Below are positions 1 to 40,937 of a stretch of 64,000 nt of DNA, piece after piece. Positions within the stretch are counted from its first letter, which is position 1; the number at the start of each line of letters is the position of its first letter. Source of the DNA: an uncultured virus (IMG/VR IMGVR_UViG_3300047678_000102) (taxonomy: Duplodnaviria > Heunggongvirae > Uroviricota > Caudoviricetes); the IMG/VR virus record IMGVR_UViG_3300047678_000102; one strand, written 5' to 3'. A program made the position numbers and the translations under genes. The notes below the pieces were generated by a model that made no database searches, was not told where the DNA came from, and saw nothing but the letters and a program-made list of their open reading frames with translations.

Positions 1-110
1 CCCCTTAGTGTTACCTAAGAGGGGCTAAACGCCCTAATTTTATCGTTAAAGCCGAGGCTAACAAAACCCTAACCCCTTACAGGCTAACGGTTTAAAATTT
101 TTTTTTTCCG

Positions 111-139
111 AGAGCCCGCGCGCCGCGCCGCCCGTCAAA
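111..139 (+). promoter_or_regulatory. Phage early promoter copy 1 (AGAGCC-N16-CGTCAAA)
   Basis: Same bipartite motif and 16-bp spacer as 28 other copies; upstream of first ORF. Confidence 0.8.
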
Positions 140-209
140 CTATTAACGGGGGGGCGGCCGGCTCAAGTGGGCCGGGCCCACCCCGCGGCCCCTGGATGGA
201 GTTTCTGCT

Positions 210-605
210 ATGGTCAAGACCGAAGTGCGTTCCGCGTCGATCAACCGCGACGAAATCCTCGTCCCGATGGAAGGATTCGTCGCCCGCGAAATCGCCAACG
301 AAATCGCCCTGCCCGCCGTCGAGGTGGCCCTGCCGACCGAGGTGGCCCTGCCGAAGGCGAAGCGCGCCACGGTGCTCGGGTGCCACGCCGATAAGGACCC
401 CGGTAAGATCAACCAGGTGATGGTCGACGCGTCGGCGGCCGACGAGGTCCTCCACGAGGACGAAATCGCCGAACGGGCTCGCGAGGTGTACGGTGCCACC
501 GCGAAGTGCGACGGAGCTCGGGTGGTCGCGCACTTCAAGTTCTGGAAGGCCCGTGGTCGCGGCATCGAAGTGACCAACACCAAGGAGGGTTGGAAGATCA
601 AGTAA
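210..605 (+). CDS. wHTH-like DNA-binding protein, HFxxWxxxxRGI family (paralog 1)
   Basis: GGAG RBS; very GC-rich codons; motif GC..PxxIN..EIA..RVVAHFKFWKARGRGI shared with 32272, 61606, 62412. Confidence 0.75.
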   Translation: MVKTEVRSASINRDEILVPMEGFVAREIANEIALPAVEVALPTEVALPKAKRATVLGCHADKDPGKINQVMVDASAADEVLHEDEIAERAREVYGATAKCDGARVVAHFKFWKARGRGIEVTNTKEGWKIK

Positions 606-635
606 CGAAACGGCCCCGGAACGGGGGTGAGGTTG

Positions 636-669
636 GGGGAGTGGGGTGAAACCCACTCCCCTTTTTTTT
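636..669 (+). terminator. Intrinsic terminator
   Basis: GGGGAGTGGG/CCCACTCCCC stem followed by T8. Confidence 0.85.
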
Positions 670-696
670 GACTTCTCCGTACATACCCTTTATGGA

Positions 697-867
697 ATGA
701 GGGTGCGTACGAAGGTTGGTGATCTGGTCCGGGTGAAATCCGGGCAACACCAGAATCGAACTGGCCGCATCGTGATGGTGGCCGATGACGGATGTTGGTA
801 CGTGCGGTTGTGTGACGACTGGTCGGTGTGTGTGGCATTGCCCGCCAAGTCGTTCGTGTTGGCGTGA
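697..867 (+). CDS. Small KOW/SH3-like protein
   Basis: KVGDLVRVKSGQHQNRTGRIV resembles a KOW motif. Confidence 0.5.
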   Translation: MRVRTKVGDLVRVKSGQHQNRTGRIVMVADDGCWYVRLCDDWSVCVALPAKSFVLA

Positions 868-1052
868 AACTGACATTGGAGGTATGACATCATGGAAGAG
901 ATCGTGCGGAAGTGTGACACTGCGACACTGGCCAAGGTGTTGCAAGAGAACAGAAAGGAATCGGATCAGGTGAGCCAGGTGTTGGTTGTTGCCATCACCG
1001 CGGAACTGGATCGTCGTGCGTCGCGTTGTGGATGAGTTCCTGACATTAGGAG

Positions 1053-1259
1053 ATGGAAAAGATGTGGTACTACCCAACGATTACCCGGAATGGTGAAAAG
1101 TTCTTCGTGGTGTCCCCGGCATGGGGGAAGTATGAGTTGTCTCCCACGAAGCATGGCTATCTCTGGGAGACTGAGGAGTCGTGCCGGTCTGACAATCGGT
1201 GGCATCACCTCATCCAACCGGGTGATGAGGTGAAGTATGTCCGGACCTATCAGGCCTAA
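1053..1259 (+). CDS. Hypothetical early protein
   Basis: AGGAG next to ATG; strand context. Confidence 0.6.
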   Translation: MEKMWYYPTITRNGEKFFVVSPAWGKYELSPTKHGYLWETEESCRSDNRWHHLIQPGDEVKYVRTYQA

Positions 1260-1262
1260 CAC

Positions 1263-1314
1263 CGGTAATCATGACTCTGCCGTATAAGATGTACGGCAGA
1301 GTATGTGGAGACCG
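1263..1314 (+). other. Long intergenic hairpin (possible RNase III-type processing site)
   Basis: ACTCTGCCGTA/TACGGCAGAGT 11-bp stem extended by CAT/ATG and CGGT/ACCG; no U-tract. Confidence 0.45.
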
Positions 1315-1511
1315 TTGTTAGGAGGAGATGGGAAATGATGACTGCCCACGAGTTGGCGAGAGCTTTGTTTGGCTCTCCCGGATCACTGTGTGGAGATTGA
1401 GGTACAGGGATGGAGTTGTGACTACGGTCTTCCGACTGTGGTTGACAATCTGTCTGGTCCCGTCGTCGTGATCAAAGTGTATGAAGATACCTCGTACTAA
1501 GGAGATGAAAG

Positions 1512-1769
1512 ATGTACTCTGTGAGTGTACGTCAGAAGACCCGCTCTAGTGATGAGTGGCTTTACTTCGAGATGCCAGACAAGGATGGGGCAATGAATCT
1601 CGCCCACACGTTGCAGATCTGCCCCACCATCTGTGAGGTGGCCGTATGGGGCAACGGCAAACAACACTACTACAAAGATCTGGCCAAGTACGGCGACTTC
1701 ACTCCGATGTACGCCAAACCCATGCAGTTGGTGTGTGAATCTGAGATGATGGAAGAAGTCAACAAGTGA
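1512..1769 (+). CDS. Hypothetical early protein
   Basis: AAGGAG RBS. Confidence 0.7.
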   Translation: MYSVSVRQKTRSSDEWLYFEMPDKDGAMNLAHTLQICPTICEVAVWGNGKQHYYKDLAKYGDFTPMYAKPMQLVCESEMMEEVNK

Positions 1770-1772
1770 TAA

Positions 1773-1829
1773 GGTCGAAATGGGGATGACACATCCCCAT
1801 AATGGTGTGATGCACCATCTGATGAGACC
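1773..1829 (+). ncRNA. Hammerhead ribozyme, type II (HHR1); predicted cleavage after A1801 (AUA)
   Basis: GGTC-GAAA-[TGGGGATG/CATCCCCA]-TA-[ATGGTG/CACCAT]-CTGATGA-GACC: full catalytic core with stems I, II and III. Confidence 0.92.
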
Positions 1830-1850
1830 AGTATGACATTAGGAGGACGT

Positions 1851-2159
1851 ATGGAAAAGGTGAGTGTGTATGTGGAGATCGGTTGGGGCCGCAAGTTCAA
1901 TGGCTCCTACAACGCAGAGACCAAGGTCCAGGTCATGCAGTACCGTGGCCCTGAGAACAACTACGGTCGGAGTGAGTTCTCCTTCCGGGGATGTCCTCTG
2001 GGTCGTGGCGACACGGTGGAAGAAGCGATCAACGACTTTGTGTTTCGTGGTCGGGAGGAGTACGAGGGACGGGAACGGTTGATTCGTAGCATGATCGTGG
2101 TGGCGAGAACGAGTGATTACCGGGTGCCGGAAGCAAGCACCCGGTATGTGGGCGACTAA
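1851..2159 (+). CDS. Hypothetical protein (ribozyme-flanked cassette gene 1)
   Basis: AGGAGG RBS just 3' of HHR1. Confidence 0.75.
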   Translation: MEKVSVYVEIGWGRKFNGSYNAETKVQVMQYRGPENNYGRSEFSFRGCPLGRGDTVEEAINDFVFRGREEYEGRERLIRSMIVVARTSDYRVPEASTRYVGD

Positions 2160-2172
2160 AGGGAGGTGAAGT

Positions 2173-2454
2173 ATGAAACACTACTTCCTGACGGTCAACA
2201 GTCTGAGTAATGCCAGGGTCATGGATCCCAACGCTGAGATCGTGAGGGTGTTGCCCAAGGCCAAGGTGGTGCACTGCTACTGTTGCAAGCCATCTGAGGT
2301 GGTTGGGTATCTGCCTGAGAGGTACGTGGTGTTCATCTCCACGAATCTCTCGCGACGTGAGATCCGGCAGTATCCTGGTGTGATTCGTGTTCGCAGAAAG
2401 ATGCTTGATCGGTACAACGATGAGAGTGGGATGATTGTCCACGAAGTATGTTAA
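2173..2454 (+). CDS. Hypothetical protein (cassette gene 2)
   Basis: GGAGG RBS. Confidence 0.75.
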   Translation: MKHYFLTVNSLSNARVMDPNAEIVRVLPKAKVVHCYCCKPSEVVGYLPERYVVFISTNLSRREIRQYPGVIRVRRKMLDRYNDESGMIVHEVC

Positions 2455-2624
2455 GGAGGTGTGCTATCGACTACGTGTATGACATTGAGTACGTGACGTG
2501 TGACAACAACAAGTGTTACATCGTCCTTCACTACCGCGGAGAACCAATCTACCTGGAACGCGGTTGTGATCTGGGTATGTGGCTCGATCAACTCAATCAG
2601 TGTGGTTATGTTCGACGATCGTAA
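2448..2624 (+). CDS. Small hypothetical protein (cassette gene 3), paralog of 3170..3328
   Basis: Read by eye, below ORF-track cutoff: MLRRCAIDYVYDIEYVTCDNNKCYIVLHYRGEPIYLERGCDLGMWLDQLNQCGYVRRS; stop abuts HHR2; start uncertain. Confidence 0.6.
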   Translation: MLRRCAIDYVYDIEYVTCDNNKCYIVLHYRGEPIYLERGCDLGMWLDQLNQCGYVRRS

Positions 2625-2681
2625 GGTCGAAACTGGGTGTATGACACCCAGTAACACCGTGATGCGGTGTCTGACGAGACC
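2625..2681 (+). ncRNA. Hammerhead ribozyme, type II (HHR2); predicted cleavage after A2653 (GUA)
   Basis: GGTC-GAAA-[CTGGGTGT/ACACCCAG]-TA-[ACACCG/CGGTGT]-CTGACGA-GACC; stems covary with HHR1; same TGATG loop I. Confidence 0.92.
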
Positions 2682-2702
2682 AGAGTAGGTAGTGAGAAGT
2701 CA

Positions 2703-2731
2703 AGAGCCCTCTCACTACTGAGACCGTCAAA
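2703..2731 (+). promoter_or_regulatory. Phage early promoter copy 2
   Basis: AGAGCC-N16-CGTCAAA. Confidence 0.85.
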
Positions 2732-2774
2732 CTTGTAACGAGGGGAAACTTACTCAAACGGAGGTATTGAGACA

Positions 2775-3155
2775 ATGGATGCACAAGAAGGCAAGGAATG
2801 GGCCGTGAGACTGATCACACGTCTCAATGGCCGGCACAATGCCGAGACGATTGAGATTCGGGAGATGTACAACATCTCGGTGCCTCTCTGCGAGTTCGTC
2901 CGGGATGGGTACGTGGAACTGACCGAGTCCGGCATCGACTACGTGTTGGAGCTGCGTAGTGTGATGAGCGACAAGGGTCTTCTGACGAATGAAGACCTGA
3001 AACTCATCGAAGACGAGAATGAACGGAAGCAAGCGGATTACTTCGAAGAGAACGGTTGGTGTCGGGCATGTGGTCACGACCAACTCAATCTCGGTGGCAA
3101 GTACTGCGTGAAGTGTCTCCATGACATGGCGTCGTCTAAAGCTGCGTGCGGGTAA
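2775..3155 (+). CDS. Hypothetical protein with C-terminal CxxC..CxxC zinc finger
   Basis: GGAGG RBS; CRAC...CVKC. Confidence 0.7.
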   Translation: MDAQEGKEWAVRLITRLNGRHNAETIEIREMYNISVPLCEFVRDGYVELTESGIDYVLELRSVMSDKGLLTNEDLKLIEDENERKQADYFEENGWCRACGHDQLNLGGKYCVKCLHDMASSKAACG

Positions 3156-3169
3156 TTGGAGAACGAATC

Positions 3170-3328
3170 ATGAATCCGTTCGAGTACACCGTGGAGTATG
3201 AGACCACGGAGGGTAAGTGCCAACCCGTGGTTGTGATCTCTGGGGATCGCATTCGTCTGGCACATGCAGGTGACTTCGGACTCTTTCTGCATCTCCTGTC
3301 TCGCCAGGGTTGGGTGCGATGCAACTGA
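3170..3328 (+). CDS. Small hypothetical protein, paralog of 2448..2624
   Basis: GGAG RBS; YxxEYxT..KC..G..I.L...DxG..L..L...GxVR pattern. Confidence 0.6.
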   Translation: MNPFEYTVEYETTEGKCQPVVVISGDRIRLAHAGDFGLFLHLLSRQGWVRCN

Positions 3329-3335
3329 TCTAACA

Positions 3336-3364
3336 AGAGCCCTCTCACTACTGAGACCGTCAAA
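3336..3364 (+). promoter_or_regulatory. Phage early promoter copy 3
   Basis: AGAGCC-N16-CGTCAAA; spacer identical to copy 2. Confidence 0.85.
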
Positions 3365-3391
3365 CTTCTAACGGGGTTTGACGGTTTTTTT
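3356..3391 (+). terminator. Terminator hairpin overlapping the promoter -10 box
   Basis: ACCGTCAAAC/GTTTGACGGT stem followed by a T-run. Confidence 0.65.
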
Positions 3392-3405
3392 GTTGCTAGG
3401 AGGGA

Positions 3406-3795
3406 ATGATGCGGAAGTTCCTACCTGATGAGTTAGAGTGTTGGAGGGATCTAGGACCAACTGTTAGGGACGTGATTGCACATGAGATCCCAGGAAATGG
3501 GAACATCTATGTCTTTGAGGGTATTGATGGCGAAGGGATCTGGTATTGTGAGAATCTTCTAACTAAGTTGTATGATGGTCCTCACGATGGACGGATTGAT
3601 TACTTCCCCAATGAGGAAACCAATTACTTCGAGAGTGCCTTTGGCATCTATGAAGGAATGCCATGGTCTCTAGGCGGATATGGATGTTCTGCTCAAGCTG
3701 CTCTTCCGTGCTTCTTCTGTCTCGAAATGGATCGTGCGAAGTGGATCGAGTTGTTTCCTGAGTTGATTGCAACTGAATATCCTGAGGAGGTGTAG
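3406..3795 (+). CDS. Hypothetical protein
   Basis: AGGAGG RBS. Confidence 0.7.
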   Translation: MMRKFLPDELECWRDLGPTVRDVIAHEIPGNGNIYVFEGIDGEGIWYCENLLTKLYDGPHDGRIDYFPNEETNYFESAFGIYEGMPWSLGGYGCSAQAALPCFFCLEMDRAKWIELFPELIATEYPEEV

Positions 3796-3796
3796 T

Positions 3797-4054
3797 ATGA
3801 AGCTTGAAGATGTTCTGATGAAGTATGAACCTCATCGTTTGACTGGCGATCGTCGTCAGTGTTGGGTTGATAATCCCGATGAAGAAGTGTATGAGTTCTT
3901 ATCTCAATCGGAACGTGATGAGTTCTGGAATGAGGCGCACGATGTGTTCTTCGAGATGTACAATGGTGATGATCGTATTCGTGACGATGGTCCTGGGATG
4001 AGCGACGATTGGAGTAGCGACGGAAAGTTCTACCTCTCCATCTATGTACGATAA
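3797..4054 (+). CDS. Acidic hypothetical protein
   Basis: GGAGG RBS; D/E-rich. Confidence 0.7.
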   Translation: MKLEDVLMKYEPHRLTGDRRQCWVDNPDEEVYEFLSQSERDEFWNEAHDVFFEMYNGDDRIRDDGPGMSDDWSSDGKFYLSIYVR

Positions 4055-4092
4055 AGGAGTGAAGTGGTGGGTTCGTGATATGTGATTAAACG

Positions 4093-4135
4093 AATACCCA
4101 GTGTGAGATGGTATATTCTCACACTGGGTATTTTT
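4093..4135. terminator. Hairpin terminator at the convergence of the two gene arms
   Basis: Perfect 16-bp stem AATACCCAGTGTGAGA/TCTCACACTGGGTATT; T-run on + side. Confidence 0.8.
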
Positions 4136-4419
4136 ACATCTACACTGATATATTGTCACCTCTCAGGATTACAAATACACATATCCATGTGTTTACACTT
4201 CTCACATGTATTAGGACTCTTGTTACTACAATCTTGTGACAATCGTTTCATGAATTCTAAGAAACATCGCATAGCTACTTTCATTGAATCTAGTTCTCCC
4301 CTCAACTTCTCTATGTCTTTCTGAGTTATCTAGATTCTCTTCTGCTACTTCAATAAGATCTCCTCTTGATAGATTCTGGTAGTATTTTTCATTCTTATTC
4401 GTAATCATACTTTGTACTC

Positions 4420-4674
4420 CTACTGTTGTTCCATATACAACTGTTCTAGTAACTTCTCATTGAAGTATGTTACTATCATTGGTATATCATTGAATGTTCC
4501 CATAGTAGGATATTTACTATACTGAGATGGTAGAAGATACTTTCTGACATCATCCCATTTAGTTACTGCATCTACTTTCTCATCCCACGTACATGCATTC
4601 TCATATCTCTTCTCAAGATATGACAACTTAGCAATTACTTCTTCCGTATGTAGATTAGGTAGAGTATCTTTCAT
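4420..4674 (-). CDS. Hypothetical protein
   Basis: AAGGAG RBS; operon context. Confidence 0.6.
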   Translation of the reverse strand: MKDTLPNLHTEEVIAKLSYLEKRYENACTWDEKVDAVTKWDDVRKYLLPSQYSKYPTMGTFNDIPMIVTYFNEKLLEQLYMEQQ

Positions 4675-4691
4675 GACATTATTGCTCCTTC

Positions 4692-5633
4692 CTACACCGT
4701 TTTCAACAACCTCTGATACTTACTTTCTACTTCTTGTATGCTTTGACGTAACTTCTCATCATCTTTAGTATCATTGTATGACATCAAAGCATTTTGTACT
4801 ATTTTTGTAATTACATATGCATTGTTATGCCCAATTTGCCTCTCAAGAGAACTGTAATCTACTCTATATGGAAATTCATTAGGCATATCTTTGGGTGGTG
4901 GTTGCAATAACAATGGTATTTTCATTCTAGGAAGAAGATCTTTCATCGCAGGGTAATCTTTTTCTATTATCTTACGTGCTTTGGTTTCTTTCTTATTGTG
5001 TATTTCTCTTCTTAATGTTCTAATGTCTTCTCTCACTGGCTTATGTATAGCATTCCGAATTGATTCTGCTTCTTTCTGATATCCATTCTCTTCTAACCAA
5101 TCTGTAAACACTGGAATGGAATCATCATCTCCATTGACAATGTTTTGGAACAGTAGTTTACCAGTTTCAGATGGTATGTTACCAAATGTCTCATAATTGT
5201 ATACAATCACTCCTTTAGGAGTGAGAGTGTATTGGTATCCTTCTCTCTTCGTTTCAGGATTTACATCTCGTTTCCTTTCAACCAATCCTCTATCCATTAA
5301 ATCATACATACTAAATGATGCATTTATAGGAGCCGTGTTTGTTCTTGGTACTCTTCGTTCAGTGGGTTTTAATGATGGTTTCTCTTGTTCTCTTACCGAT
5401 CTAGTTATAGCACCTTTTGAGGTATTACCCTCACTCATTGCTTGGAAGATCTTTCTTCTTCTCGCACCTTTTATTGGTTTTAGAGGTGTAGGTGGTTTCT
5501 TCTTCACCCATGGAAAAGGTGATGCTGGTGTAGTATTCAGAGTAGGTTCATCTGGTATTACTTCAGGAAGATCATTACCAGAAGCAATCTGAACTGGTCT
5601 TGCTTTCTTTGGTTCTTGTTGTTCATCTGACAT
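4692..5633 (-). CDS. Winged-helix (PadR/MarR-like) protein with TIGR02996-like motif
   Basis: LMDRGLVER..YTLTPKG wing; DDDSIPVFTDWLEENG..EAESIR. Confidence 0.65.
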   Translation of the reverse strand: MSDEQQEPKKARPVQIASGNDLPEVIPDEPTLNTTPASPFPWVKKKPPTPLKPIKGARRRKIFQAMSEGNTSKGAITRSVREQEKPSLKPTERRVPRTNTAPINASFSMYDLMDRGLVERKRDVNPETKREGYQYTLTPKGVIVYNYETFGNIPSETGKLLFQNIVNGDDDSIPVFTDWLEENGYQKEAESIRNAIHKPVREDIRTLRREIHNKKETKARKIIEKDYPAMKDLLPRMKIPLLLQPPPKDMPNEFPYRVDYSSLERQIGHNNAYVITKIVQNALMSYNDTKDDEKLRQSIQEVESKYQRLLKTV

Positions 5634-5701
5634 TTCTAAATACCTCTTATTATATACTATGATATCTCTCAAACATCATATCATACTATATCACACTCTT
5701 A

Positions 5702-6040
5702 TTACCTTCTCAAAAAGATCTCATTCTTCCAGTATTGAGTAAGAGTATCCCATTTAGGATCTCCAAATTCTAATGCAAACAATGTAAACCCATTCAGAAA
5801 CTTTCTATCATCCGTGAAAGATGCAAAGAGATGCCTGATACCATCTTCATAATCTCCATATACCATATGTAACACACAATTTGTTCTCATATTCAGAGTA
5901 TTCACATCAATCTTATCATACCATTTAGGATTCTGAATATCTAACAAAGATGCGCCATTAGATGCATACTTCTTCAACATCTCATCTGACATATCACTCA
6001 AATCATACGTCTGTTGATTATCTAATCCTGATTCTGTCAT
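5702..6040 (-). CDS. Conserved phage hypothetical protein
   Basis: GASLLD..P.WYDKID...L.M..NCVL..VYGDY motif, recalled from other phage proteins. Confidence 0.6.
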   Translation of the reverse strand: MTESGLDNQQTYDLSDMSDEMLKKYASNGASLLDIQNPKWYDKIDVNTLNMRTNCVLHMVYGDYEDGIRHLFASFTDDRKFLNGFTLFALEFGDPKWDTLTQYWKNEIFLRR

Positions 6041-6267
6041 CTTTCAGTTTCCTTTTGGATAGAGTATTACTTTTTAGAGGTCCCTTGTTTATCTAATCAC
6101 TGACTGAGTATATACTTAGGAATCATTCCCTTAGGGATGTTTTCTGATTTCATTTCGTTTCAATAACCTGAGATTCTGTTGTCTTCTTTTTCTTTCGTGT
6201 TTTTAGATGTTTGCCGATTTTTCATCTCCTTCTTTATTGCTTTCCGTTTTGAGATGAATTATGCGTT

Positions 6268-6546
6268 CTACACATCTAATTCATTCACAACTTCCATCAC
6301 TTCTTCATACGTATGAGTATCATTAAACTTTGGTACACTCATCTCATATTTATTAGCAATATACACATTGATCTTATCCCAGATCTCAGATTGATATTCA
6401 CCATTGGTTATTTTCAAAGTGGCACCAGATAAACACCATTTGCAAGCAGCTTCAGATGTAGGCATAACAGATATGTCACTTTGATTCTTAGCATACGTTC
6501 CTTGACACCACCTCGATTTATCAGATAGTAGTTCTTTGATTTTCAT
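6268..6546 (-). CDS. DUF6197-like protein (paralog)
   Basis: WCQG.YA..CKWCLSGA..FNDTHTYEEV. Confidence 0.65.
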   Translation of the reverse strand: MKIKELLSDKSRWCQGTYAKNQSDISVMPTSEAACKWCLSGATLKITNGEYQSEIWDKINVYIANKYEMSVPKFNDTHTYEEVMEVVNELDV

Positions 6547-8140
6547 TGGTATCTCATTCCTTTTCTGGTTTATTTCTCAGTAGTGTTTTGTGGTTGGATT
6601 GTTTTCATTACATGATGGATAGCTGCATTCCATCCTGCGTTGAATGTTTGAAGACGTTCTGTTGCCTTAACTTTTGTTTTCGTATCATAAGCAACCCAAG
6701 CATCGTAGATTACTTGTGTTGTGTAACCATAATCAATCTCTTTAGATTCCTTTTCTTTCTTCAATGCTTCATGTTTTTCCATATCATCAATCAATCAATC
6801 CATCCAACATTCTCCACTTCTCTCGTAAGATTTCCTTGTACCCACCAGTTCCAAATACATGCGATGCTGTAACATCAGTAACTACCCCTAGTGCACCTTT
6901 TAGTTGTTGTCTTGTCTCGTTCAGTTGTTCCAGAGTCATGTTTTCATACATTAGTTTGATCCTTAATTGTCTTCTTCTTTACTGGGATACCGTACCAACC
7001 ATGATCATAGCTTGCTCGTACCATTGCTTCTATACCATTGAGTAGAAATCTTGATACGAGTTCTAGACTAGTGTCAGGTGTGTATTGTGAGATTGATTTC
7101 ACAGGGATTCCAGTATCCATTATCTCAATTTGATATCCAACAAAGTCTTCATACTCTTTGATACTGCCTGGGAAGATGGTAATCTCACCCCATTTACGTC
7201 TGATTTCTGATTGTTTGTCTTCCCGCATTGCTGTTTCAAGATTCGAGAACAGGTTTTTGAACATTGGGTTCCACTCCTTTTTGTTTCTCAATTATATCTT
7301 CAATGAATTCATCATAACACTCCCAGAAGACGTCAAATCCTTTTTCATCTCCGTAGGATTCAGCAATCACTTCTGGATAGTTATACACCAAGTATTTCTT
7401 TCCGAAACGAACCTGAATCCAATCATTGAAATCTGTCATGCGTTGGTTGATGGACTTATTCTTGTGGGCGAAGCACCAACCATCGATGAAAGCCGCCAAC
7501 TGACATAACGACCGTTTATGCAACAATACTTCTGGCATATCCCGTAGTAGATCAAGTAACACAAAGAAGTCTTCTTCAATCATTTTTATTCCTTTTCTGC
7601 TCCGTATTTGCCCAGAATACTACCAGTAGTAGAAGTTCGCTTATTACTATGAACCCTACTGTCCACCATAGAAATTCGTTCATGAGGGTTACTTACCTTT
7701 CGTTTGCAGATACTCCACGATCTCCTGGACGTCTCTGTCATGGTCTTCCTTAGCAATACCGAGAAATGCCCATCCAGACGTCAGGCGCTCGGCAGTAATC
7801 TTTGCCTTGGCTCTCTCACCATTAGTGAAGTTGATTCCTTTCAACTTCTCACTCCACGGTAGATTTACATGGATGTTGTCATAAGGATTGTCTGACATGT
7901 TACCCTCTCCCCATTGCTTCTCGCCTTCTTAGGTGTAGTTCTTTCAGAAGTGGTTCCAACCACTTCCATTCATCAGGGCCAAAACCCAAGCAAAGAGATA
8001 CATCTCTGGTTAATGTCCAATATACTGACACACCAGGATCATACCCATGAAGAGTGAGACCAAATTCTTTGAGAAGATCTCTTACTTCATTCATTCGGCT
8101 TACAAGCTTTTTCTCTTCTTTAGTCATTGGTTATTCTCTC

Positions 8141-9325
8141 TTACTCCTTACATGGGGAGGGTTCTTTGCCCAGAAGGTGATCAATGATGTTGTTTGGAAG
8201 AATGTGTGCATCTCCAAACACATTCGTTCGATACATAAACCCCCGTAGTGATTCTGGCAGTCGTTTGATACCACTACCACAATATCCCCCATCCCAATTA
8301 GATGAAGTAGCATACAATGTGTGATAATTTTGAGCACGTAAAGTCTTTGGATCAATGACAAGTTCTTTGGTGTTTGGATAGAGATTGAGGGAAATCCATT
8401 TACACGATCCTTGCATTGGTCCAAACACCATAAGCAGAATCAAGTTTCGATCAACTTTGGTTGTGAGAGCAAAATCAGCATTTGTCCACTTGATGCGATT
8501 TTCGTTTTGACCATCCCCATCACATTCTGCACAATATCCCAGATCAGAACACATAGTGCATTTTGGTTCTGCGTTCATATGCTCGTCATATTCTTGTTCC
8601 GTCATCTGAGAAATATCTTCTTCGTATTCCTCTTGACTATACCCACAATTATCGCATTCATTGTGGTTACCAACCCATGCTTTGTTTTCACATGGGATGA
8701 TGACAGACCTGGGATACTTATCGTCAATGCGTTCCCAATCGTAGTTGTCTAGAAGGAATTGAAGTTCTGTATCTACAGAACGAGGGAGAAGATTCTTGAT
8801 TGCTTGATTACGGACCTTTTCCTTACCCGATGCAGTATCAGTGGTAAGGGCAATATCATCAACATTTCGTTGTTCGTTGGTATACTCCAACTTTCCTCGG
8901 GCCATGTTTGCCATCACTTGACGGCATTCACTCAGCATCTTGCCCGAGAGAACTGGTCGACCATCATCTTCATTGATGGGAAGATCTTCTCGGCACATCC
9001 AGAATCCGTAGCCGCACCGAGCCACGAGTGGGCCGAGGTATTCATTGTCATCTTCGATGTCGCAGATACCAACCATGTCATCCCAGTCATCACATGGGAC
9101 GCAGAAGAAGAGATCTTCGGAAAGGGGATTGAGTAGATCCCCCTTGTTGTCTGGGTGAGCACGAAGGATAGCGAAGGAGAGGGGGCAATCATCCGGTATT
9201 CCAACCATCAGAAAAACGTCTCCAGGCTGTGCTGGGCCGTTATTGGCCCTTTGGGCCGCTTTCGCCTTCTCGTAGCTCTGGACGGCCTGCTGCATCGCCT
9301 GGCGGACCTGTTCAAGCTTGTTCAT
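8141..9325 (-). CDS. Large mosaic hypothetical protein with Cys clusters
   Basis: 394-aa ORF; CxxC motifs; GC content drops partway through. Confidence 0.6.
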   Translation of the reverse strand: MNKLEQVRQAMQQAVQSYEKAKAAQRANNGPAQPGDVFLMVGIPDDCPLSFAILRAHPDNKGDLLNPLSEDLFFCVPCDDWDDMVGICDIEDDNEYLGPLVARCGYGFWMCREDLPINEDDGRPVLSGKMLSECRQVMANMARGKLEYTNEQRNVDDIALTTDTASGKEKVRNQAIKNLLPRSVDTELQFLLDNYDWERIDDKYPRSVIIPCENKAWVGNHNECDNCGYSQEEYEEDISQMTEQEYDEHMNAEPKCTMCSDLGYCAECDGDGQNENRIKWTNADFALTTKVDRNLILLMVFGPMQGSCKWISLNLYPNTKELVIDPKTLRAQNYHTLYATSSNWDGGYCGSGIKRLPESLRGFMYRTNVFGDAHILPNNIIDHLLGKEPSPCKE

Positions 9326-18210: not shown

Positions 18211-18510
18211 TCAGTAATCGTCATACATCTCTTGAGGACGAGGAATTAAGAAACCCGTTATACACTCCATATCTTCGATGATCCTAATCTTTTTACCTAT
18301 TGCTTTCCCAAGGCAATCTATGTTTATTCCTCTTTTACCAATCAAAGCCCCAGGTCTTCCGGTAACAATAGTTATAATGTCTTCACACACATCAATTCTT
18401 GAGATGTATAATCTCAAGATCTCATCTTCAGCAGCACAATAGTTACCATTGTTCTTTTGGAGATAGTATTCTCCAATTTCTCGTGCCACTTGTCTTTCTT
18501 CCGATGTCAT
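18211..18510 (-). CDS. KH-domain (type II, ribosomal S3-like) RNA-binding protein
   Basis: ITIVTGRPGALIGKRGINID, GxxG loop. Confidence 0.7.
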   Translation of the reverse strand: MTSEERQVAREIGEYYLQKNNGNYCAAEDEILRLYISRIDVCEDIITIVTGRPGALIGKRGINIDCLGKAIGKKIRIIEDMECITGFLIPRPQEMYDDY

Positions 18511-18511
18511 T

Positions 18512-19072
18512 TTACAATTCCCGGATTGGTACAAACTTACCATTGTTCTTGATGACGTTATTCATGATAGCTTTGAGTCGGTGTTCGTACATTTCTTGTG
18601 TAGCCAAATCAAATCCGGCTTCTTCACGTGTCAATCCCCACCCACCTTCAAATGCACTTTCCATTTTGTCAAGATCAGAAAAATTGAAAATATCCTTCAT
18701 ATGATTGGTCATATCCCAAGAATAGCTTCTCAGAACTTGACCTACCTTCATCTTATCAAACAGTCGCACAGAAGATAGAAAAACACTGCCGATTGCGCAA
18801 ACCTGACACTTTTCCGCAATTTTGTCAATTTGCTTTTGGGCATCCCAGTTTAGCATATTCTTTGGGAAGGCATCGACAATATGTGTATATTTATACTCCT
18901 CATCATTTTTTAGTTCTAGATATGCTCCACCCATAGCGGTCAGAGTCTTTAGCTTGAGTTGTAGTAGCACATCTTTTGCTACCAAGACTGCCCTTTCTTC
19001 CATCGTCATTGCATCAAGTTCCTTCTTGGTATACTTCTTCGGGGCAGTCTTGTCGGAAGTGTTCTTGCTCAT
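18512..19072 (-). CDS. CxxCAxG family hypothetical protein (paralog 2)
   Basis: RAVLVAKDVL..CQVCAIG..MESAFE..AIMNNVIKNNGKFVP. Confidence 0.75.
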   Translation of the reverse strand: MSKNTSDKTAPKKYTKKELDAMTMEERAVLVAKDVLLQLKLKTLTAMGGAYLELKNDEEYKYTHIVDAFPKNMLNWDAQKQIDKIAEKCQVCAIGSVFLSSVRLFDKMKVGQVLRSYSWDMTNHMKDIFNFSDLDKMESAFEGGWGLTREEAGFDLATQEMYEHRLKAIMNNVIKNNGKFVPIREL

Positions 19073-20423: not shown

Positions 20424-20969
20424 TTATGGAACAAACTCACCGTTATTCTGAATAATATTTATCATGATTGCTTCAAGCTTATCACGTAGGGTTCGATACT
20501 CATTACCAAATAACACGGCTTTTTCCACCGAATCTCCATAACTCTCTTCTACGTCTTCATACATAAAAGTCACATCATGATTCTCAGATTCAAATGCAGA
20601 TTCAATCAAAAGAATCTGAACATCTGAAAATATGTTTTTCAGAATATTTCTAATCGTTTTGTTTTTAGGATTCAATCTTTCAAAGTAATCATCATATCCC
20701 ATTTCTTTGATTGTCACTTTGTTATACAATCTGACATAACTCAACACACATGCTCCAAGAGCACAAACTTGACAATCAGATTGAATCTTATCAACATATT
20801 TCTGAGCATTGTCATTTATTGTTTCGAGAGGCAAGTAAGATAACTGGGGAGAAAAGATGTATTCTCCTGATTTAACTTGAATGGTGTTGATTCGAGATAG
20901 AACGTCTTTGGCTACGTTCACTCGCATTTGAGCTCGTTCATCTAGAACCTGCTGATTCATTACTTGCAC
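20424..20969 (-). CDS. CxxCAxG family hypothetical protein (paralog 3)
   Basis: RVNVAKDVL..CQVCALGACVLSYVR..IESAFE..NIIQNNGEFVP. Confidence 0.75.
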   Translation of the reverse strand: MQVMNQQVLDERAQMRVNVAKDVLSRINTIQVKSGEYIFSPQLSYLPLETINDNAQKYVDKIQSDCQVCALGACVLSYVRLYNKVTIKEMGYDDYFERLNPKNKTIRNILKNIFSDVQILLIESAFESENHDVTFMYEDVEESYGDSVEKAVLFGNEYRTLRDKLEAIMINIIQNNGEFVP

Positions 20970-21265
20970 TCCTTTTGTCGAAGTTCTTCCAATTCAAAAA
21001 CGTCAATGTCATCACATGTATCTTCTTCGTACCAATCTACCCAAGAACCATTTTCAGAATCTGTATTGTCGGAGGAATCAAATACTTGCAATCCTCCGAT
21101 ATTACAATAATCAGGTTTGATACGATGTTCAAGTTGGAACAGGTCGTAATAAGCCAAAGTGTTGAGAATGAGCTTAGCTTCTATCAGGGTCTTGACAGAA
21201 ACATAAAATGGCTTACCAGGAACTTGTGGAATCCACCATACTCGAAGATCTCCATTTGAATCCAT
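20960..21265 (-). CDS. P22 gp17-like (superinfection exclusion-related) protein
   Basis: LRVWWIPQVPGKPFYV.V...EA...L..LA.YDLFQ....IKPDYCN.GGLQ. Confidence 0.75.
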   Translation of the reverse strand: MDSNGDLRVWWIPQVPGKPFYVSVKTLIEAKLILNTLAYYDLFQLEHRIKPDYCNIGGLQVFDSSDNTDSENGSWVDWYEEDTCDDIDVFELEELRQKECK

Positions 21266-22284: not shown

Positions 22285-22575
22285 CTACACATCCAGCGTT
22301 TCAGAAATTGCTTTCACTTCTTCATATGTATGACTGTCATTAAATACAATCATAGATGTGCCGTTATAGTGCTTCCGTATATAATCGTGAATCTTATCAA
22401 GGGTGTCATTCCATACAAGTTGGTCGTGTTTTCCATAACATTTCAATGCTGCGCCAAAAAAGCACCACTTACTAGCCTTTGGATCGCTAGGTTCAACTGA
22501 TTTTCCTTCGGGAGTCAAAGCTGCATTACCTTGACACCACTTAGATTTATCAGATAGAACTTCTCTAATCTTCAC
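22285..22575 (-). CDS. DUF6197-like protein (paralog)
   Basis: LSDKSKWCQG..KWCFFGA..FNDSHTYEEV. Confidence 0.65.
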   Translation of the reverse strand: MKIREVLSDKSKWCQGNAALTPEGKSVEPSDPKASKWCFFGAALKCYGKHDQLVWNDTLDKIHDYIRKHYNGTSMIVFNDSHTYEEVKAISETLDV

Positions 22576-22588: not shown

Positions 22589-22891
22589 TTAGATATCAAG
22601 ATGATCAAGAACTTCTTTTACTTCTTCAAAACGATGACTATCATTGAACTGAGGAATGTTCATTTTGAACTTCTTCCAAAGATAATCCGAAAGCTTATTA
22701 CAACGATCCGAAGTGTCAGTATTGATATAATCCTCTATGGGACATGCAATATCTCCACCAGATAGGCACCAACAACAAGCGTTGGGATCATTGGGAGATA
22801 CTTGATCACCATTAGAATTTCTGGCATATACATGTTGGGTCCATTTAGATGCATCAGAAAAGAACTCGCGTAGTTTCATAGATATTCTCAT
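22589..22891 (-). CDS. DUF6197-like protein (tandem paralog)
   Basis: KWTQHVYAR..CCWCLSG..FNDSHRFEEV. Confidence 0.65.
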   Translation of the reverse strand: MRISMKLREFFSDASKWTQHVYARNSNGDQVSPNDPNACCWCLSGGDIACPIEDYINTDTSDRCNKLSDYLWKKFKMNIPQFNDSHRFEEVKEVLDHLDI

Positions 22892-30651: not shown

Positions 30652-31239
30652 TTACCTTTCTGGATTACAGATACACATATCAAGATGTTTGCACTTCTCA
30701 CAAACTTCTTCCAACATAGGGAGTTCTTCCTTTAGAACATATCGGAAGGCATAAGCGTCTTCGTATGTGTCTTGGAAGACCCGTCGCTTCACAGCAGTAG
30801 CTTGAAATCCCATTTTCTTTAGGAATAGTTGGCCATCAAGATTACTTTCGCGGACTTCAATGGTAACCCGAGATCGCCGATGGATAGACAACTTGGAGAT
30901 CATCTTGTTGATCATCCTCCTACCATATCCCTTACAACGATCATCGGGATGAACGGCTAGATTAACCAATTTCAAGTTGTTCTTGTATAGTTCGTAGATC
31001 ATATATCCCTTGATCTCTTCACCAACCTCGCAAATCATGCCAATACAGTTGCGGGAGCGAAGAGCCCGAATGAAGTCTTCTTCCACCCAGGGTTGGGTAA
31101 AACTACGCTGCTCAATGGCAAGGATTTCTGCCATATCTCGGCGGATCATCCATCGGATGTGGGGATTGTTAGAACTGAAAGGATTAGTAGCTTCGGGCTC
31201 TTGGCTCACACCGGCTTCGGGAATTGAATCACTAATCAT
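30652..31239 (-). CDS. rimI: RimI-like GNAT N-acetyltransferase
   Basis: IRWMIRRDMAEILAIEQRSF..W.EEDF..LR.RNCIGM..NLAVHP..GYGR..EVRESNL..QLF..KMGF. Confidence 0.85.
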   Translation of the reverse strand: MISDSIPEAGVSQEPEATNPFSSNNPHIRWMIRRDMAEILAIEQRSFTQPWVEEDFIRALRSRNCIGMICEVGEEIKGYMIYELYKNNLKLVNLAVHPDDRCKGYGRRMINKMISKLSIHRRSRVTIEVRESNLDGQLFLKKMGFQATAVKRRVFQDTYEDAYAFRYVLKEELPMLEEVCEKCKHLDMCICNPER

Positions 31240-33225: not shown

Positions 33226-33736
33226 TTATTTCTGCTCCTTATACAAATCCCTAATTAACTCAACTGATTCTTGTGGTACCCCAATTTTACCATCACTCAC
33301 TGTTGCTCTAATTACTAATTGTTTTCCATCCCGTAGCAACAATCTCCAAAATGGGATAAACTTCTTATCTGGATGAATTTCTTTTGCATGATCTTTAAGT
33401 TCTTGTAAGACTTCATCAAAGTCAAGAAAATCAATGAGTTCAATATCCATGTTATGTTAATCCCTTTTCCAAGGAGTACCAATCCACCAATCTGGTGGCT
33501 CAATGTCAATATCTGGAGTTACCTCACTGTAAGGACCACTAAAACTAGATTCTGATGCTACTGCCGTCCTATCGGTGAAATACACTACTTCGGCATTGTC
33601 AGAAGGTTTTACATCGTAATTATAATAATTGCTATCATGATCGTAATCAATAGTCTTGCCTTGAGCAAACTCAAGAGCTTCCGCCATTGTACAAGTCTTC
33701 CACCTCATTTCACCCTTTTTATACATCTTAATATAC

Positions 33737-34150
33737 CTACCAAGTTTGGAAGATACCAGCCATTTCCGTCACTTCTTTAGCAAAACTTTCTGGAATAACA
33801 ACATTCTTAGGTGCTACCATAAACATAGGTGCGATTTGCTTTGGTTTAAATCCTGCCGCACCACATCCAATTTCAGTAAGAAGGAACTTTTCTTCTGGAT
33901 GTTGAGAAGCATGTTCTATAAATTTATCTACAGACTTCTCAATCTCCATGAGCGTTACTTCCCCACGGTTAGGATCTTGGTTAACTGTGGGAATAGCGTA
34001 AGATTGCCCTTGCCTTCCTTCTGCTTTACCCATTTCAGCTCCCCATTCATTCAATGCACAACGTGCTCCACCACCATCGTGGTTGCCCTTTGTGTTAGAG
34101 CCAAAGACTAATACACAATCTGGTGTCGCATGTTTCCTTGTATAGAACAT
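33737..34150 (-). CDS. A1S_2505-like phage protein (macro-like fold)
   Basis: VFGSN..G.H.GG.A..A...GA..G..EG.QGQSYAIPT..FLLTEIGCG.AG. Confidence 0.75.
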   Translation of the reverse strand: MFYTRKHATPDCVLVFGSNTKGNHDGGGARCALNEWGAEMGKAEGRQGQSYAIPTVNQDPNRGEVTLMEIEKSVDKFIEHASQHPEEKFLLTEIGCGAAGFKPKQIAPMFMVAPKNVVIPESFAKEVTEMAGIFQTW

Positions 34151-34348
34151 AACTTATTCCTTTTGATTGGTGGATTTGTAAATGACGCGAAGTTCATTGA
34201 TTACACTATCGGAGATAAAATTTTGATTAGGTTCAAATTTTGGAGATGGTTCCAGTTTGGGTTCTTTTCCATAAATAGAGCATAAGATAAAAGCAATTGG
34301 GTACACCATCAGAATGCACAAATATATGATTAAGGTGAAGTTCATTGG

Positions 34349-35290
34349 TTAATTTTGGGTTTGGATGGTAGGCACATACACCATAAATTCATTTTTAACA
34401 TATCCAATTGGACGACATCCAAGTTTGAACATATCAACCAAAGGTTGCCACGGATTAGGTTGTACCATTCCTGCAAGTTTCCATCGTTCACATCTCCAAA
34501 GAACATAACGTGGACGAACGTACCACCTACCCCACCAATAATTAGCAGCATAAGCAGCAGCATAAGCAGCAGCAGCAGCAGCATCAGCAGCAGCAGCATA
34601 AGCAGCAGCAGCATAAGCAGCAGCAGCATCAGCAGCAGCAGCAGCAGCATCAGCATCAGCATAAGCATCAGCATAAGCAGCAGCATAAGCAGCATCAGCA
34701 GCAGCATAAGCAGCATCAGCAGCAGCATCAGCAGCAGCATCAGCAGCATCAGCAGCAGCATCTATTGCTGTAACAATTATTTTCAATTTGTCTGAAGGGA
34801 CAACAGACCCTTTTACCCAAGGTAGAATTGCATCCCTCCATTGGATAAATAGAAATTGAATCTGTTCATTTGCTACTGGCTGTGGTGGTTTCAACCAAGA
34901 AATATCCTTCCACGTTGCTGCTTCTTGTTTCACACTTTCAATCCTCTTAACAAAATCAGGACCAAAAATATCTTCGAGAAAAAGTTCTTTCACAACAGTA
35001 AGAGCTTTAACACGAGATTTAGCAGTTTCTGTCTGAATGATATCCTCATTTTCGACTGAAACTTCCCACCAGCGCCAGGGTCTAATACTGTTTTCAGCAA
35101 ATTGAATTGTCTTTTTAGGTGTGTCGCTTACATGGAAACCTCTACCACACCCATTATTAGTAGGACCTTCTGGATCTGGATGTGTTAAAGGTATACTAGA
35201 AGCCAATGCTTCAGCATAATTTATAGTCCCTGTGCGAAAATCCGTACCATCTGGACGGGTACACTTGTAATACGTTTTAGCCTCAGACAT
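34349..35290 (-). CDS. Protein with internal Ala-rich (A/D/Y) repeat tract
   Basis: MSEAKTYYK..CGRGFHVS..KSRV N-domain; (AAADAAYA)n tract. Confidence 0.75.
   Translation of the reverse strand: MSEAKTYYKCTRPDGTDFRTGTINYAEALASSIPLTHPDPEGPTNNGCGRGFHVSDTPKKTIQFAENSIRPWRWWEVSVENEDIIQTETAKSRVKALTVVKELFLEDIFGPDFVKRIESVKQEAATWKDISWLKPPQPVANEQIQFLFIQWRDAILPWVKGSVVPSDKLKIIVTAIDAAADAADAAADAAADAAYAAADAAYAAAYADAYADADAAAAAADAAAAYAAAAYAAAADAAAAAAYAAAYAANYWWGRWYVRPRYVLWRCERWKLAGMVQPNPWQPLVDMFKLGCRPIGYVKNEFMVYVPTIQTQN
34544..34762. repeat. Low-complexity codon repeat (GCT/GAT/TAT on - strand)
   Basis: About 220 bp of AGC/ATC/ATA triplets on +. Confidence 0.95.
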
Positions 35291-35658
35291 TTTACCACCT
35301 TTGTTAAACTTGTGATTTAATGGCAGGAACATTTCGGAATTCCCTATCAATCCTACGTTGCCATTCTGCCAACACTTCCATTTGCTCCCTAGTTTTTACA
35401 TCTTCAGGGTAAAACGGAATCCTTTCATCATTCTCAATTTCTTTTGTTAGTTCTGGGGTAAACGCATGGTAGAGGAAACGTCCGTGATCTGGAAGTTTAT
35501 TGGTTCTAATTTGCGTTAGACATCCTGTATCGAAACCTTGTTGATTTCCAGCACATTGGAAGATCCCATGCCAACAATTCCACTGTTCATGAGTAATACT
35601 AGGATCATCAAGGAGGCGTTGGATTTGTTCATCATACTTATCCATTTACCTACTCCCT

Positions 35659-35697
35659 AAAAAGAAGATGGGGAGGGAATGTATTTCCCTCCCCATC
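35659..35697 (-). terminator. Intrinsic terminator
   Basis: GATGGGGAGGGAA/TTCCCTCCCCATC stem; U-rich tail on - strand. Confidence 0.8.
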
Positions 35698-35710
35698 GAA
35701 AGCGTCTAAG

Positions 35711-35968
35711 TTAGACCGCAATTTGCTCCCGACTACCAGTCGTTCGCATCTCCTTGGAACCAATCACCGTCAGGGTGACGCCAATTTGGACCTGGACACG
35801 CTTGCCAGCCACTTCGATGAAGTCCTTACCGGCAAGGTACCAACCAAACGACTTCGTCGAGAAATCCTTGACATCTGCTTGGAGAGGGGCATCCCCAATA
35901 CGCACAACCAAAGGCTTCGCGTTATTGAAGAACTCTTCTGTAGTGAGCGGGCACACGGTCTTCTTCAT
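35711..35968 (-). CDS. Small conserved protein of Planctomycete type
   Basis: MKKTVCPLT.EEF..AKP..KDFST.SFGWYL.GK..V.VQIG..LTVIGSKE; resembles a Gemmataceae/Isosphaeraceae hypothetical (from memory). Confidence 0.7.
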   Translation of the reverse strand: MKKTVCPLTTEEFFNNAKPLVVRIGDAPLQADVKDFSTKSFGWYLAGKDFIEVAGKRVQVQIGVTLTVIGSKEMRTTGSREQIAV

Positions 35969-36322
35969 TACAAACACTCCTTGAGGGATGGGAAACGGAC
36001 TACTCAAACTCTGCTTCAAACTCTTCAATCAACGATTCATCGTTCAACTTACGAAGACGTGTCTTCTCGTGATTCCCTACATGCTCCCAAAATCCATGAG
36101 CATCTCGCTCCAACCATTTCGGAAGCACTTCAACTAGCTTCTCAATCATTTCTTCACGAGGCGGAGGGGTGAAAATCTCAATGGTTGGCGCACCGCGTTC
36201 TTTAACCATCCTATTGAACGTAACGTCGTTGAAATAGGTAGACTCGGTGGTGCCATCAGGAAACTTAAATGTCAACTTCATTTGAACCCCAGTTTAAGTT
36301 AAACCGTTTCCGCCGTTACAAG

Positions 36323-36351
36323 TTTGACGGTTAAGACAGTGTAAGGGCTTT
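36323..36351 (-). promoter_or_regulatory. Phage early promoter copy 17
   Basis: AAAGCC-N16-CGTCAAA. Confidence 0.85.
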
Positions 36352-36363
36352 TGAAAGGTCAAC

Positions 36364-36681
36364 TTAGACCGCATACCTTTGAGTAAACGCTTCTTTACCA
36401 CACTTAGGGCAATAGTATTTTCCATCTTTCTTATCTGGATGTCCGCCTTCTATGAATTGGTTCCAGTTACAATGCTTACCAGATTCTTTTACAGTATCAA
36501 TGTGTTTACATTTTTTGTAATACTTAAATCCTTCACATGGGCATTCCCAATCATACTCGTATGGGCCACTGGAAGGCCCATACGTTACATCGTAAATCTT
36601 CCCACGACTTCCTTCTATCTGAGTTTGGAAATGTTCACATGTACCACAATGCCAATAAGTTTCAAAGGTAAAATCAGGCAT
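36364..36681 (-). CDS. SWIM zinc-finger protein
   Basis: WECPCEGFKYYKKCKHI (CxC..CxH). Confidence 0.75.
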   Translation of the reverse strand: MPDFTFETYWHCGTCEHFQTQIEGSRGKIYDVTYGPSSGPYEYDWECPCEGFKYYKKCKHIDTVKESGKHCNWNQFIEGGHPDKKDGKYYCPKCGKEAFTQRYAV

Positions 36682-36914
36682 TTGGTTCTTCCTCTAATGG
36701 AAGAAGAGGAGTAGGTAATGCTAACCATTTACCTACCATATCATCTGATTTGTAAACAAACCCACCATTGCAGGTATATGTAATAAATCGTCTTTCTGGT
36801 GGACCACAGTATTTCACTTTAATAATGTCCAGGGTGTTTTCCGTGGCTTTAGACCATTGTTTACCAAAGAACCAATACCACCCTTCTTCTGTTGGCCAAT
36901 CCGTTACCCACATG

Positions 36915-40724: not shown

Positions 40725-40937
40725 ACTACACCTCTTATTAATGATGAACAAAGTATCTGTAAGCAAGACCACCAAGAACAAACCAAATACCTCTGATGAT
40801 AAACCACATCGCTACCTTCCTGGCAAATGATTTATCGGTAGTATGAGCAATAACTGTCGGCCCGGCAAACATCCCTAGAAAGCAAAATAGTAGCATCAGG
40901 CTAAGAACATCTGTATGGTCTGAGTTGTTACGAGACA

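Follow-up and report, generated by a model that had tools for sequence, protein, structure and literature searches.

The two hammerheads and the genes around them

We analysed a 64,000-nucleotide (nt) stretch of DNA from an uncultured virus of the class Caudoviricetes (IMG/VR record IMGVR_UViG_3300047678_000102), hereafter the window, and focused on two motifs near its beginning that read as type II hammerhead ribozymes. Hammerhead 1 (HHR1) occupies positions 1773-1829 and hammerhead 2 (HHR2) positions 2625-2681, both on the + strand. Each was recognised by reading, by a structural descriptor, by a covariance model built from relatives (R1, see below) and by the minimum-free-energy (MFE) fold, which bears out the original prediction of two complete type II hammerheads on this strand, each just after a stop codon. 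In HHR1, the parts are stem II (1773-1776/1826-1829), GAAA (1777-1780), stem III (1780-1800), stem I (1802-1818, with the loop UGAUG) and the core strand CUGAUGA (1819-1825), with the triplet AUA and a predicted cut between 1801 and 1802. HHR2 comprises stem II (2625-2628/2678-2681), GAAA (2629-2632), stem III (2632-2652), stem I (2654-2670, again with the loop UGAUG) and the core strand CUGACGA (2671-2677), with the triplet GUA and a predicted cut between 2653 and 2654. Both show the type II permutation, in which stem II is open and loops close off stems I and III. Stem II (GGTC/GACC) and loop I (TGATG) are common to the two copies, while stems I and III differ and yet still pair, as had also been noted. 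The stop codons stand directly 5' of the ribozymes, TGA TAA ending at 1772 before HHR1 and TAA ending at 2624 before HHR2.

All elements of the hammerhead core could be located in both motifs. The strand C3 U4 G5 A6 N7 G8 A9 is present (CTGATGA at 1819-1825 and CTGACGA at 2671-2677), together with G12 A13 A14 and the A15.1-U16.1 pair (A1780-U1800 in HHR1, A2632-U2652 in HHR2). The residue H17 is not G (A1801 in HHR1, A2653 in HHR2) and is directly followed by stem I, and the G10.1-C11.1 pair at the base of stem II (G1826-C1776 and G2678-C2628) is invariant in 87/87 relatives. Because hammerheads cut 3' of H17, cleavage is predicted after A1801 and after A2653, which agrees with the cut sites deduced originally from the fold. 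The cut-to-cut distance is 852 nt, and the open reading frames (ORFs) beginning at 1851, 2173 and 2448 lie between the two sites. A descriptor demanding the type II core and three helices, with minimum stems of 3/4/4, was run over both strands of the 64 kb and matched HHR1 and HHR2 only, with stems of 4/9/7 base pairs (bp). Dinucleotide shuffles at the same minimum stems gave three matches in total in 200, a chance expectation of about 0.015 matches per window even with weaker stems allowed. When folded as isolated 57-mers, both motifs adopt the three-way junction as the MFE structure, at -24.1 kcal/mol for HHR1 and -25.8 kcal/mol for HHR2 (z -3.65 and -3.90, respectively).

Both ribozymes fall within one probable + strand transcription unit bracketed by terminator-like sites. 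The first of these, at 635-662 after ORF 210-605, is a hairpin of 11 pairs (8 of them G-C) with a T run and probably ends the preceding unit; the second, at 3353-3388, has 16 pairs and a T run and probably ends the unit with both hammerheads. On the 5' side of HHR1 lies an ORF of 85 amino acids (aa) at 1512-1769, without Pfam or PHROG match, whose stop TGA (1767-1769) is followed by TAA (1770-1772). The first ORF of the three-gene cassette between the cuts (ORF 1, 1851-2159, 102 aa) has AGGAGG at 1841-1846 before its ATG at 1851 and holds a domain of roughly 90 aa, for which 28 relatives were found among 1.84 billion representatives at E≤0.001, 13 of them at E≤1e-10; a Pfam scan of 10 of those 28 gave 0 matches. 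ORF 2 (2173-2454, 93 aa) is an orphan that found only itself among 5.8 billion clusters and occurs on 2 contigs, the longest of 131,259 nt. Neither ORF 1 nor ORF 2 has a close relative in IMG/VR. ORF 3 (2448-2624, up to 58 aa, start uncertain) is a paralogue of a 52-aa ORF at 3170-3328, to which it is 35% identical over 48 aa (E 5.7e-07, searched against just the 12 ORFs of the window), and model R1 finds no hammerhead after this second paralogue. A further ORF of 126 aa (2775-3155), again without Pfam or PHROG match, lies 3' of HHR2. All of these ORFs are on the + strand. The analysis does not support the original placement of the cassette in an early region.

The same region contains other repeated or hairpin-forming elements. 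A 43-nt repeat is present in three + strand copies (109-151, 2701-2743 and 3334-3376, at 70%, 100% and 95% identity) that end 30-59 nt before the ATG codons at 210, 2775 and 3406, the second copy ending 32 nt before ORF 2775; the third overlaps the terminator-like hairpin 3353-3388. Judged by its sequence and position, the repeat could be a promoter, an operator or a signal in the 5' untranslated region (UTR). A search of IMG/VR for its exact 34-nt core gave 0 matches, and the three copies share only a weak consensus fold (-7 kcal/mol, with 2 covarying pairs in 3 sequences). Sequence and predicted fold also indicate a 9-bp hairpin on the + strand just 3' of HHR2 (2688-2719). In the gap after ORF 1053-1259, a perfect 10-bp + strand hairpin with a 7-nt loop (1275-1301, CTCTGCCGTA / TACGGCAGAG) precedes GAGACCG, a sequence reminiscent of the 3' end of both hammerheads; neither the descriptor nor R1 detects a hammerhead at this hairpin.

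Relatives and their arrangement in arrays

We scanned IMG/VR with the exact pattern GGTCGAAA, gap, TGATG, gap, CTGANGAGACC, which does not require stems I and III, and obtained 71 loci. Although the pattern never demanded these stems, 76 of 77 matches (55/56 unique) passed the helix descriptor. In the fetched loci the descriptor identified 127 hammerheads, 93 of them unique, with up to 8 within one 6-kb locus. The same pattern was found at 8 places only in 185,579 species genomes, in metagenome-assembled genomes of several phyla, suggesting that the GGUC/UGAUG form is mostly a phage feature. At the level of nucleotide sequence, the region 1400-3200 had no match by blastn against 50,697 phage records, and a search of metagenome contigs for the exact 57-mer of HHR1 gave 0 matches.

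We aligned 87 of the 93 unique relatives and left out six, of which three have a stem II of 3 bp and the other three exceed 64 nt. The core columns are invariant, and 98.1% of the paired cells form pairs versus 66.6% in shuffled and 30-45% in slid controls; this percentage is partly by construction because the rows were chosen by a descriptor that requires pairing, which leaves the variety of pair types unaffected. Changes on both sides were seen in 13/16 pairs. The covariance model R1 was built from these 87 sequences, with those of the window excluded, and it matched HHR2 with 61.9 bits (E 1.6e-18) and HHR1 with 56.9 bits (E 8.7e-17), in each case over the full model length. With default filters R1 found nothing at E≤10 in the rest of the 64-kb window, and with filters off the next best match on 1-9000 reached only 7.6 bits. 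As judged from sequence and fold, the identification of HHR1 and HHR2 as real type II hammerheads, including their cut sites, is well supported.

The relatives also follow common rules of layout. Not one of 70 loci has hammerheads on both strands, and four whole records contain 8, 4, 6 and 3 R1 matches within 3.5, 7.2, 3.1 and 2.6 kb, respectively. Paired ribozymes are thus found in related phages, as same-strand arrays of 2 to 8 copies among the 71 loci, with cut-to-cut spacings of 218-2139 nt in 42 unique adjacent pairs. Since arrays in the relatives have such spacings, the 852 nt and three genes between HHR1 and HHR2 are one interval of a common layout, which does not sustain the original picture of a special twin device. 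In 85/93 unique copies, a reading frame open for 40 codons or more terminates in the interval from 9 nt before the ribozyme to 3 nt inside it, compared with 163/1860 random positions, and in 27 of those 85 the stop codon overlaps the first base of the ribozyme. The window's two copies obey this stop-codon rule. The base directly 5' of stem II is A in 92/93 unique copies, and 63/93 are followed within 60 nt by a Shine-Dalgarno-like site and a start codon. In four related loci, most genes between ribozymes are small and without assignment, 9/42 ORFs having any PHROG match. One IMG/VR contig carries eight type II hammerheads in 3.5 kb (33226-36727 of the record), five of which have stem II GGAC/GUCC instead of GGUC/GACC, so that stem II covaries between copies in a single array.

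Proposed cleavage of the phage transcript and alternative roles

From the observed motif, fold, family membership and layout rules of the relatives, we infer cleavage in vivo and a benefit from it. In our judgement, it is probable that both ribozymes are functional and cut one + strand polycistronic RNA into pieces, thereby decoupling neighbouring genes. According to this reading, the RNA of a transcription unit extending roughly from 670 to 3390 would fold, and each hammerhead would cut after A1801 or A2653, giving one RNA with the upstream genes, one of 852 nt with the three cassette genes and one with the downstream genes. Each upstream piece would end a few bases past a stop codon, with the stem III hairpin and a 2',3'-cyclic phosphate, and each downstream piece would begin with a 5'-OH on the stem I hairpin, at least 12 nt before the next ribosome-binding site. 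In general bacterial mRNA decay, such ends are expected to resist 3' exonucleases and 5'-end-dependent RNases. The likely benefit would be separate, hairpin-protected mRNAs, with stability and translation uncoupled between neighbours. The quantified layout of the relatives, in which frames end at the ribozyme start (85/93) and arrays keep to one strand, fits gene-by-gene cutting of the mRNA. Experimental precedent exists for related motifs. In the part of Perreault et al. (2011) on clustered prophage hammerheads, the ribozymes lie on either side of genes, and self-cleavage of a cluster of three was seen in E. coli (PMC3088659). Those authors expressed an Agrobacterium cluster in E. coli from a plasmid. 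For Desulfovibrio vulgaris, the portion of a second report concerning this bacterium describes cyPhyRNA-seq data that showed cleavage by three hammerheads of type II located close to phage-like genes (PMC8782182). A 2019 review, in its treatment of these ribozymes, repeats the idea of polycistronic processing and asks for more work (PMC6765202).

Several findings weigh against the processing of the transcript by these two motifs. The triplet AUA of HHR1 is atypical: position 16.2 is G in 93/93 unique relatives, whose triplets are GUC in 80, GUA in 12 and GUU in one, and the 15.2-16.2 pair, U-A in HHR1, is C-G in 85/87 aligned relatives. In the equilibrium ensemble of 1500-2900, stem II has a probability of 0.50 in HHR1 and 0.00 in HHR2, the latter because GGUCG pairs with CGAUC (2616-2620) in a competing + strand hairpin, CGAUC-GUAA-GGUCG (2616-2629), which ties up the 5' strand of HHR2 stem II and is a thermodynamic prediction only. 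Complementarity between loop I and the tail in the 93 relatives equals that of shuffled tails, and the published type II pseudoknot, considered as the tertiary contact behind fast cleavage, is not enriched. By eye, the loop UGAUG of HHR1 could pair with CAUUA at 1837-1841, and HHR2 is without such a site; the conserved UGAUG loop and the A before stem II hint, at the level of sequence, at another contact. We also looked for a promoter of the unit and found no convincing one. Finally, Rfam reported no hammerhead in the whole window at the gathering score, and permissive searches (E≤10 on 1600-2900; E≤5 on 1-4400) returned neither a hammerhead nor any other ribozyme family. On five related loci, RF02276 (Hammerhead_II) gave 7 matches at 28.4-31.7 bits, below its gathering threshold of 37. 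In the consensus of that model, stem II is 2 bp and stem I is longer than in the subclass found here. Because the relatives also score below the threshold, we take the silence of Rfam as a sensitivity gap for this subclass and not as evidence against the motifs.

Three of these observations, namely the silent Rfam models, the atypical AUA triplet and the disfavoured stem II of HHR2 in its context, would also agree with the motifs being decayed or chance look-alikes that do not cleave. We regard this explanation as extremely improbable. The chance expectation per window given above is low even for weaker stems, the R1 E values are on the order of 1e-17 and 1e-18, and no core position is altered.

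The competing hairpin is of interest in another respect, as the stop codon UAA lies inside its GNRA-like GUAA loop. According to the folding model, the hairpin might couple HHR2 cleavage to translation termination. This bears on the alternative that the cuts mainly switch or tune the translation of the next gene, or replace a terminator, and do not serve mRNA stability. In the translational variant, cleavage would free a ribosome-binding site, or termination at the abutting stop codon would control the folding of the ribozyme. The tight packing of stop codon, hammerhead and ribosome-binding site, the competition of HHR2 stem II with a hairpin that displays the stop codon, and the occurrence of the 43-nt repeat, a possible start signal, after HHR2 are in keeping with such a role. 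In addition, the part of a study of eukaryotic RNA viruses that concerns their ribozymes describes cases in which translation initiation needs self-cleavage (PMC13725137). On the other hand, the AGGAGG at 1841-1846 is 12 nt outside HHR1 and is unpaired within the HHR1 fold, the next gene starts 94 nt from HHR2, and the competing hairpin has been predicted, by thermodynamics, from a single sequence. We consider a primarily translational or terminator-like function unlikely.

The composition of the region and the distribution of its genes raise the question of mobility. G+C amounts to 45-68% in the + strand module 1-4060 and to 34-48% in the remainder, which lies almost all on the - strand (52% versus 40% overall); the loci of the relatives have a median of 57% G+C. 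Strand and composition switch between 1-4060 and 4200-64000, with a bidirectional terminator-like hairpin near 4095-4135. We compared contigs of four DNA runs with positions 1-9000. One Logan contig from an independent run spans 3338-5760, which rules out an assembly chimera as the cause of the G+C shift near 4100. The contigs break at the 34-nt core of the 43-nt repeat described above, and one extends 344 nt before the first base of the window. In one run the contig word depth falls from about 10-11 (1-5760) to 3-5 (5744-9000), where the contigs also become short; a doubly covered terminal repeat would account for this drop, and strain variation would do so equally well. On composition, the G+C-rich module may derive from a phage lineage richer in G+C, like most carriers of the subclass.

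Hammerheads might accordingly be boundary marks or recombination sites of gene cassettes that move among phages, with RNA cleavage being secondary. The G+C-rich module inside a phage of lower G+C agrees with this idea, as does the paralogue pair, in which ORF 3 has a hammerhead and ORF 3170-3328 has none. Likewise, tblastn of the window's 12 + strand ORFs (210-4054) against the 71 hammerhead loci found no relative, which agrees with the statement, in the passage of Perreault et al. on gene context, that gene identities around hammerhead clusters are not constant (PMC3088659). However, stems I and III covary strongly around an invariant catalytic core, which indicates selection on the RNA fold and not on DNA identity, and the two copies of the window have only short stretches in common (16 nt at 88%), which are poor substrates for homologous recombination. 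A role as mobility marks therefore appears to us quite improbable, and processing of the transcript remains the reading that we prefer.

Elsewhere, the window looks like a large phage by its PHROG and Pfam matches and its six tRNA genes. Three DUF6197 paralogues are encoded on the - strand (6268-6546, 22285-22575 and 22589-22891), and further genes include a KH-domain protein (18211-18543), a GP17 superinfection-exclusion domain (20960-21265), a GNAT acetyltransferase (30652-31239) and a + strand RNase H-like gene (59011-59538).

The circular RNA model and known systems

The original prediction went beyond cleavage and proposed that RNA 1802-2653, once released, is re-joined through a chimeric hammerhead, by the ribozyme or by a ligase, to form a circular three-gene mRNA. 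In the mirror reaction, 1801 would be joined to 2654 and the cassette would be spliced out. The logic of the proposal holds in so far as the two cuts would leave RNA 1802-2653 with complementary hammerhead halves, the 5' end carrying stem I-CUGAUGA-GACC of HHR1 and the 3' end GGUC-GAAA-stem III of HHR2; this complementarity is there by construction. Host ligases circularise retrozyme and viroid-like RNAs. When the excised RNA is folded in linear form, its predicted MFE structure includes the chimeric stem II, which has a probability of 0.28. When the interior was shuffled and the end pieces were kept (n=20), however, the median probability was 0.15, values of at least 0.28 occurred in 9/20 and the helix was in the MFE structure in 7/20. 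Because the shuffled controls match the native RNA, the chimeric helix follows generically from the end halves and the energy model, and the cassette is not special in this regard. The helix is absent from the MFE structure of the circular form, and ends about 800 nt apart would hang on a helix of 4 bp. Stem II is identical in 29/42 unique adjacent pairs of the relatives, a sharing between neighbours that would be in accord with the circle but fits a structural preference just as well.

The window does encode proteins that could act on such ends. Pfam and PHROG searches identified, all on the - strand, an Rnl1-family RNA ligase (37648-38790), an HD phosphohydrolase (40134-40781), an AAA_33 kinase that also matches a polynucleotide-kinase PHROG (40938-41369) and a second RNA ligase (PF09414, 60175-60900). 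By the biochemistry of phage T4, enzymes of these kinds can repair cyclic-phosphate and 5'-OH ends and join them. Nevertheless, the six tRNA genes provide an ordinary reason for a tRNA-repair kit, and the gene set is probably such a kit against host anticodon nucleases, whose products could also act on hammerhead ends. Five records of relatives with hammerheads contain no Rnl1 (the control genomes also gave no match), no RtcB and one RNA ligase, so the arrays manage without a phage ligase. The window's RNA ligase has its nearest record in a 595-kb uncultured phage (47.5% identity), where R1 finds no match. According to the passage of Perreault et al. on such products, spliced and circular RNAs from such clusters were sought and neither was detected (data not shown there; PMC3088659), and our literature search, which did not cover subscription journals, found no paper showing a circular mRNA from phage hammerhead pairs. 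Among the six sequencing runs listed for the region, none is of RNA. Circularisation is logically possible on the cleavage model, is unsupported here and had already been published as an idea. We consider the circular three-gene mRNA very unlikely. The more specific version, in which the three-gene RNA would be re-sealed by the phage kinase and phosphohydrolase with the Rnl1-type ligase, or by host RtcB, to yield a circular mRNA or a spliced cassette, has in our view hardly any chance of being correct. If true, an exonuclease-proof translatable circle, or splicing, would give a bacterial virus a natural way to circular mRNA that combines ribozymes with a ligase.

The locus is best explained by processing, and neither processing nor the circle is a new idea, as both were stated in 2011 in the corresponding passages of Perreault et al. 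(PMC3088659). By itself, the locus adds little on what phage hammerheads are for. What the analysis contributes is a clean model of the subclass, based on 87 sequences with the loop UGAUG, stem II GGUC/GACC and, in front of that stem, an A. Because the Rfam threshold misses this subclass, phage annotation pipelines under-count these ribozymes. The locus is also a small, easily cloned two-ribozyme unit beside a ribozyme-less paralogue, in a phage with RNA-repair enzymes, and would be a handy test bed for processing versus circle formation.

Known systems resemble the window to different degrees. Retrozymes and viroid-like RNAs, as presented in the relevant part of PMC7761336, likewise have two hammerheads of the same polarity that bound a unit of a few hundred nt with joinable ends. 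A further paper on such RNAs is PMC4918200. They are, however, retroelements or circular RNA replicons whose hammerheads are of type III or I, according to the portion of PMC13725137 that covers them, whereas those of the window are of type II. The unit in the window contains three protein genes led by Shine-Dalgarno sites, in the operon of a double-stranded DNA phage, and does not belong with these replicons. The ribozymes of RNA viruses share with ours a hammerhead just 5' of a coding region, where the cut matters for expression, but in the cases described in that same portion they are type I hammerheads in UTRs and serve eukaryotic cap-independent translation, unlike the phage operon considered here (PMC13725137). 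Closer are the D. vulgaris ribozymes, which are type II and near phage-like genes, and for which the section of PMC8782182 devoted to them shows cyclic-phosphate and 5'-OH ends in vivo; they lie at three separate loci, whereas the present pair is in one operon and is known from its sequence.

The closest precedent is provided by the clusters of Perreault et al., whose paper, in the passages describing the clusters, reports the first natural type II hammerheads and proposes the processing of long phage transcripts (PMC3088659). It also states that successive cleavage and ligation could yield spliced or circular RNAs, neither product being detectable in the experiments mentioned there (PMC3088659). 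The window and these clusters have in common the type II topology, the full core and same-strand copies in phage DNA on either side of one gene or a short block of genes, whose identity varies, as well as the proposed role of cutting long phage transcripts into gene-length mRNAs (PMC3088659). Compared with those clusters and with RF02276, the subclass of the window differs in its 4-bp stem II GGUC/GACC, its 6-bp stem I capped by UGAUG, a pseudoknot that is not enriched and Rfam scores below the threshold. The host differs from those of the clusters as well, being a large phage of low G+C (contig of at least 131 kb) that carries its ribozymes in a module richer in G+C.

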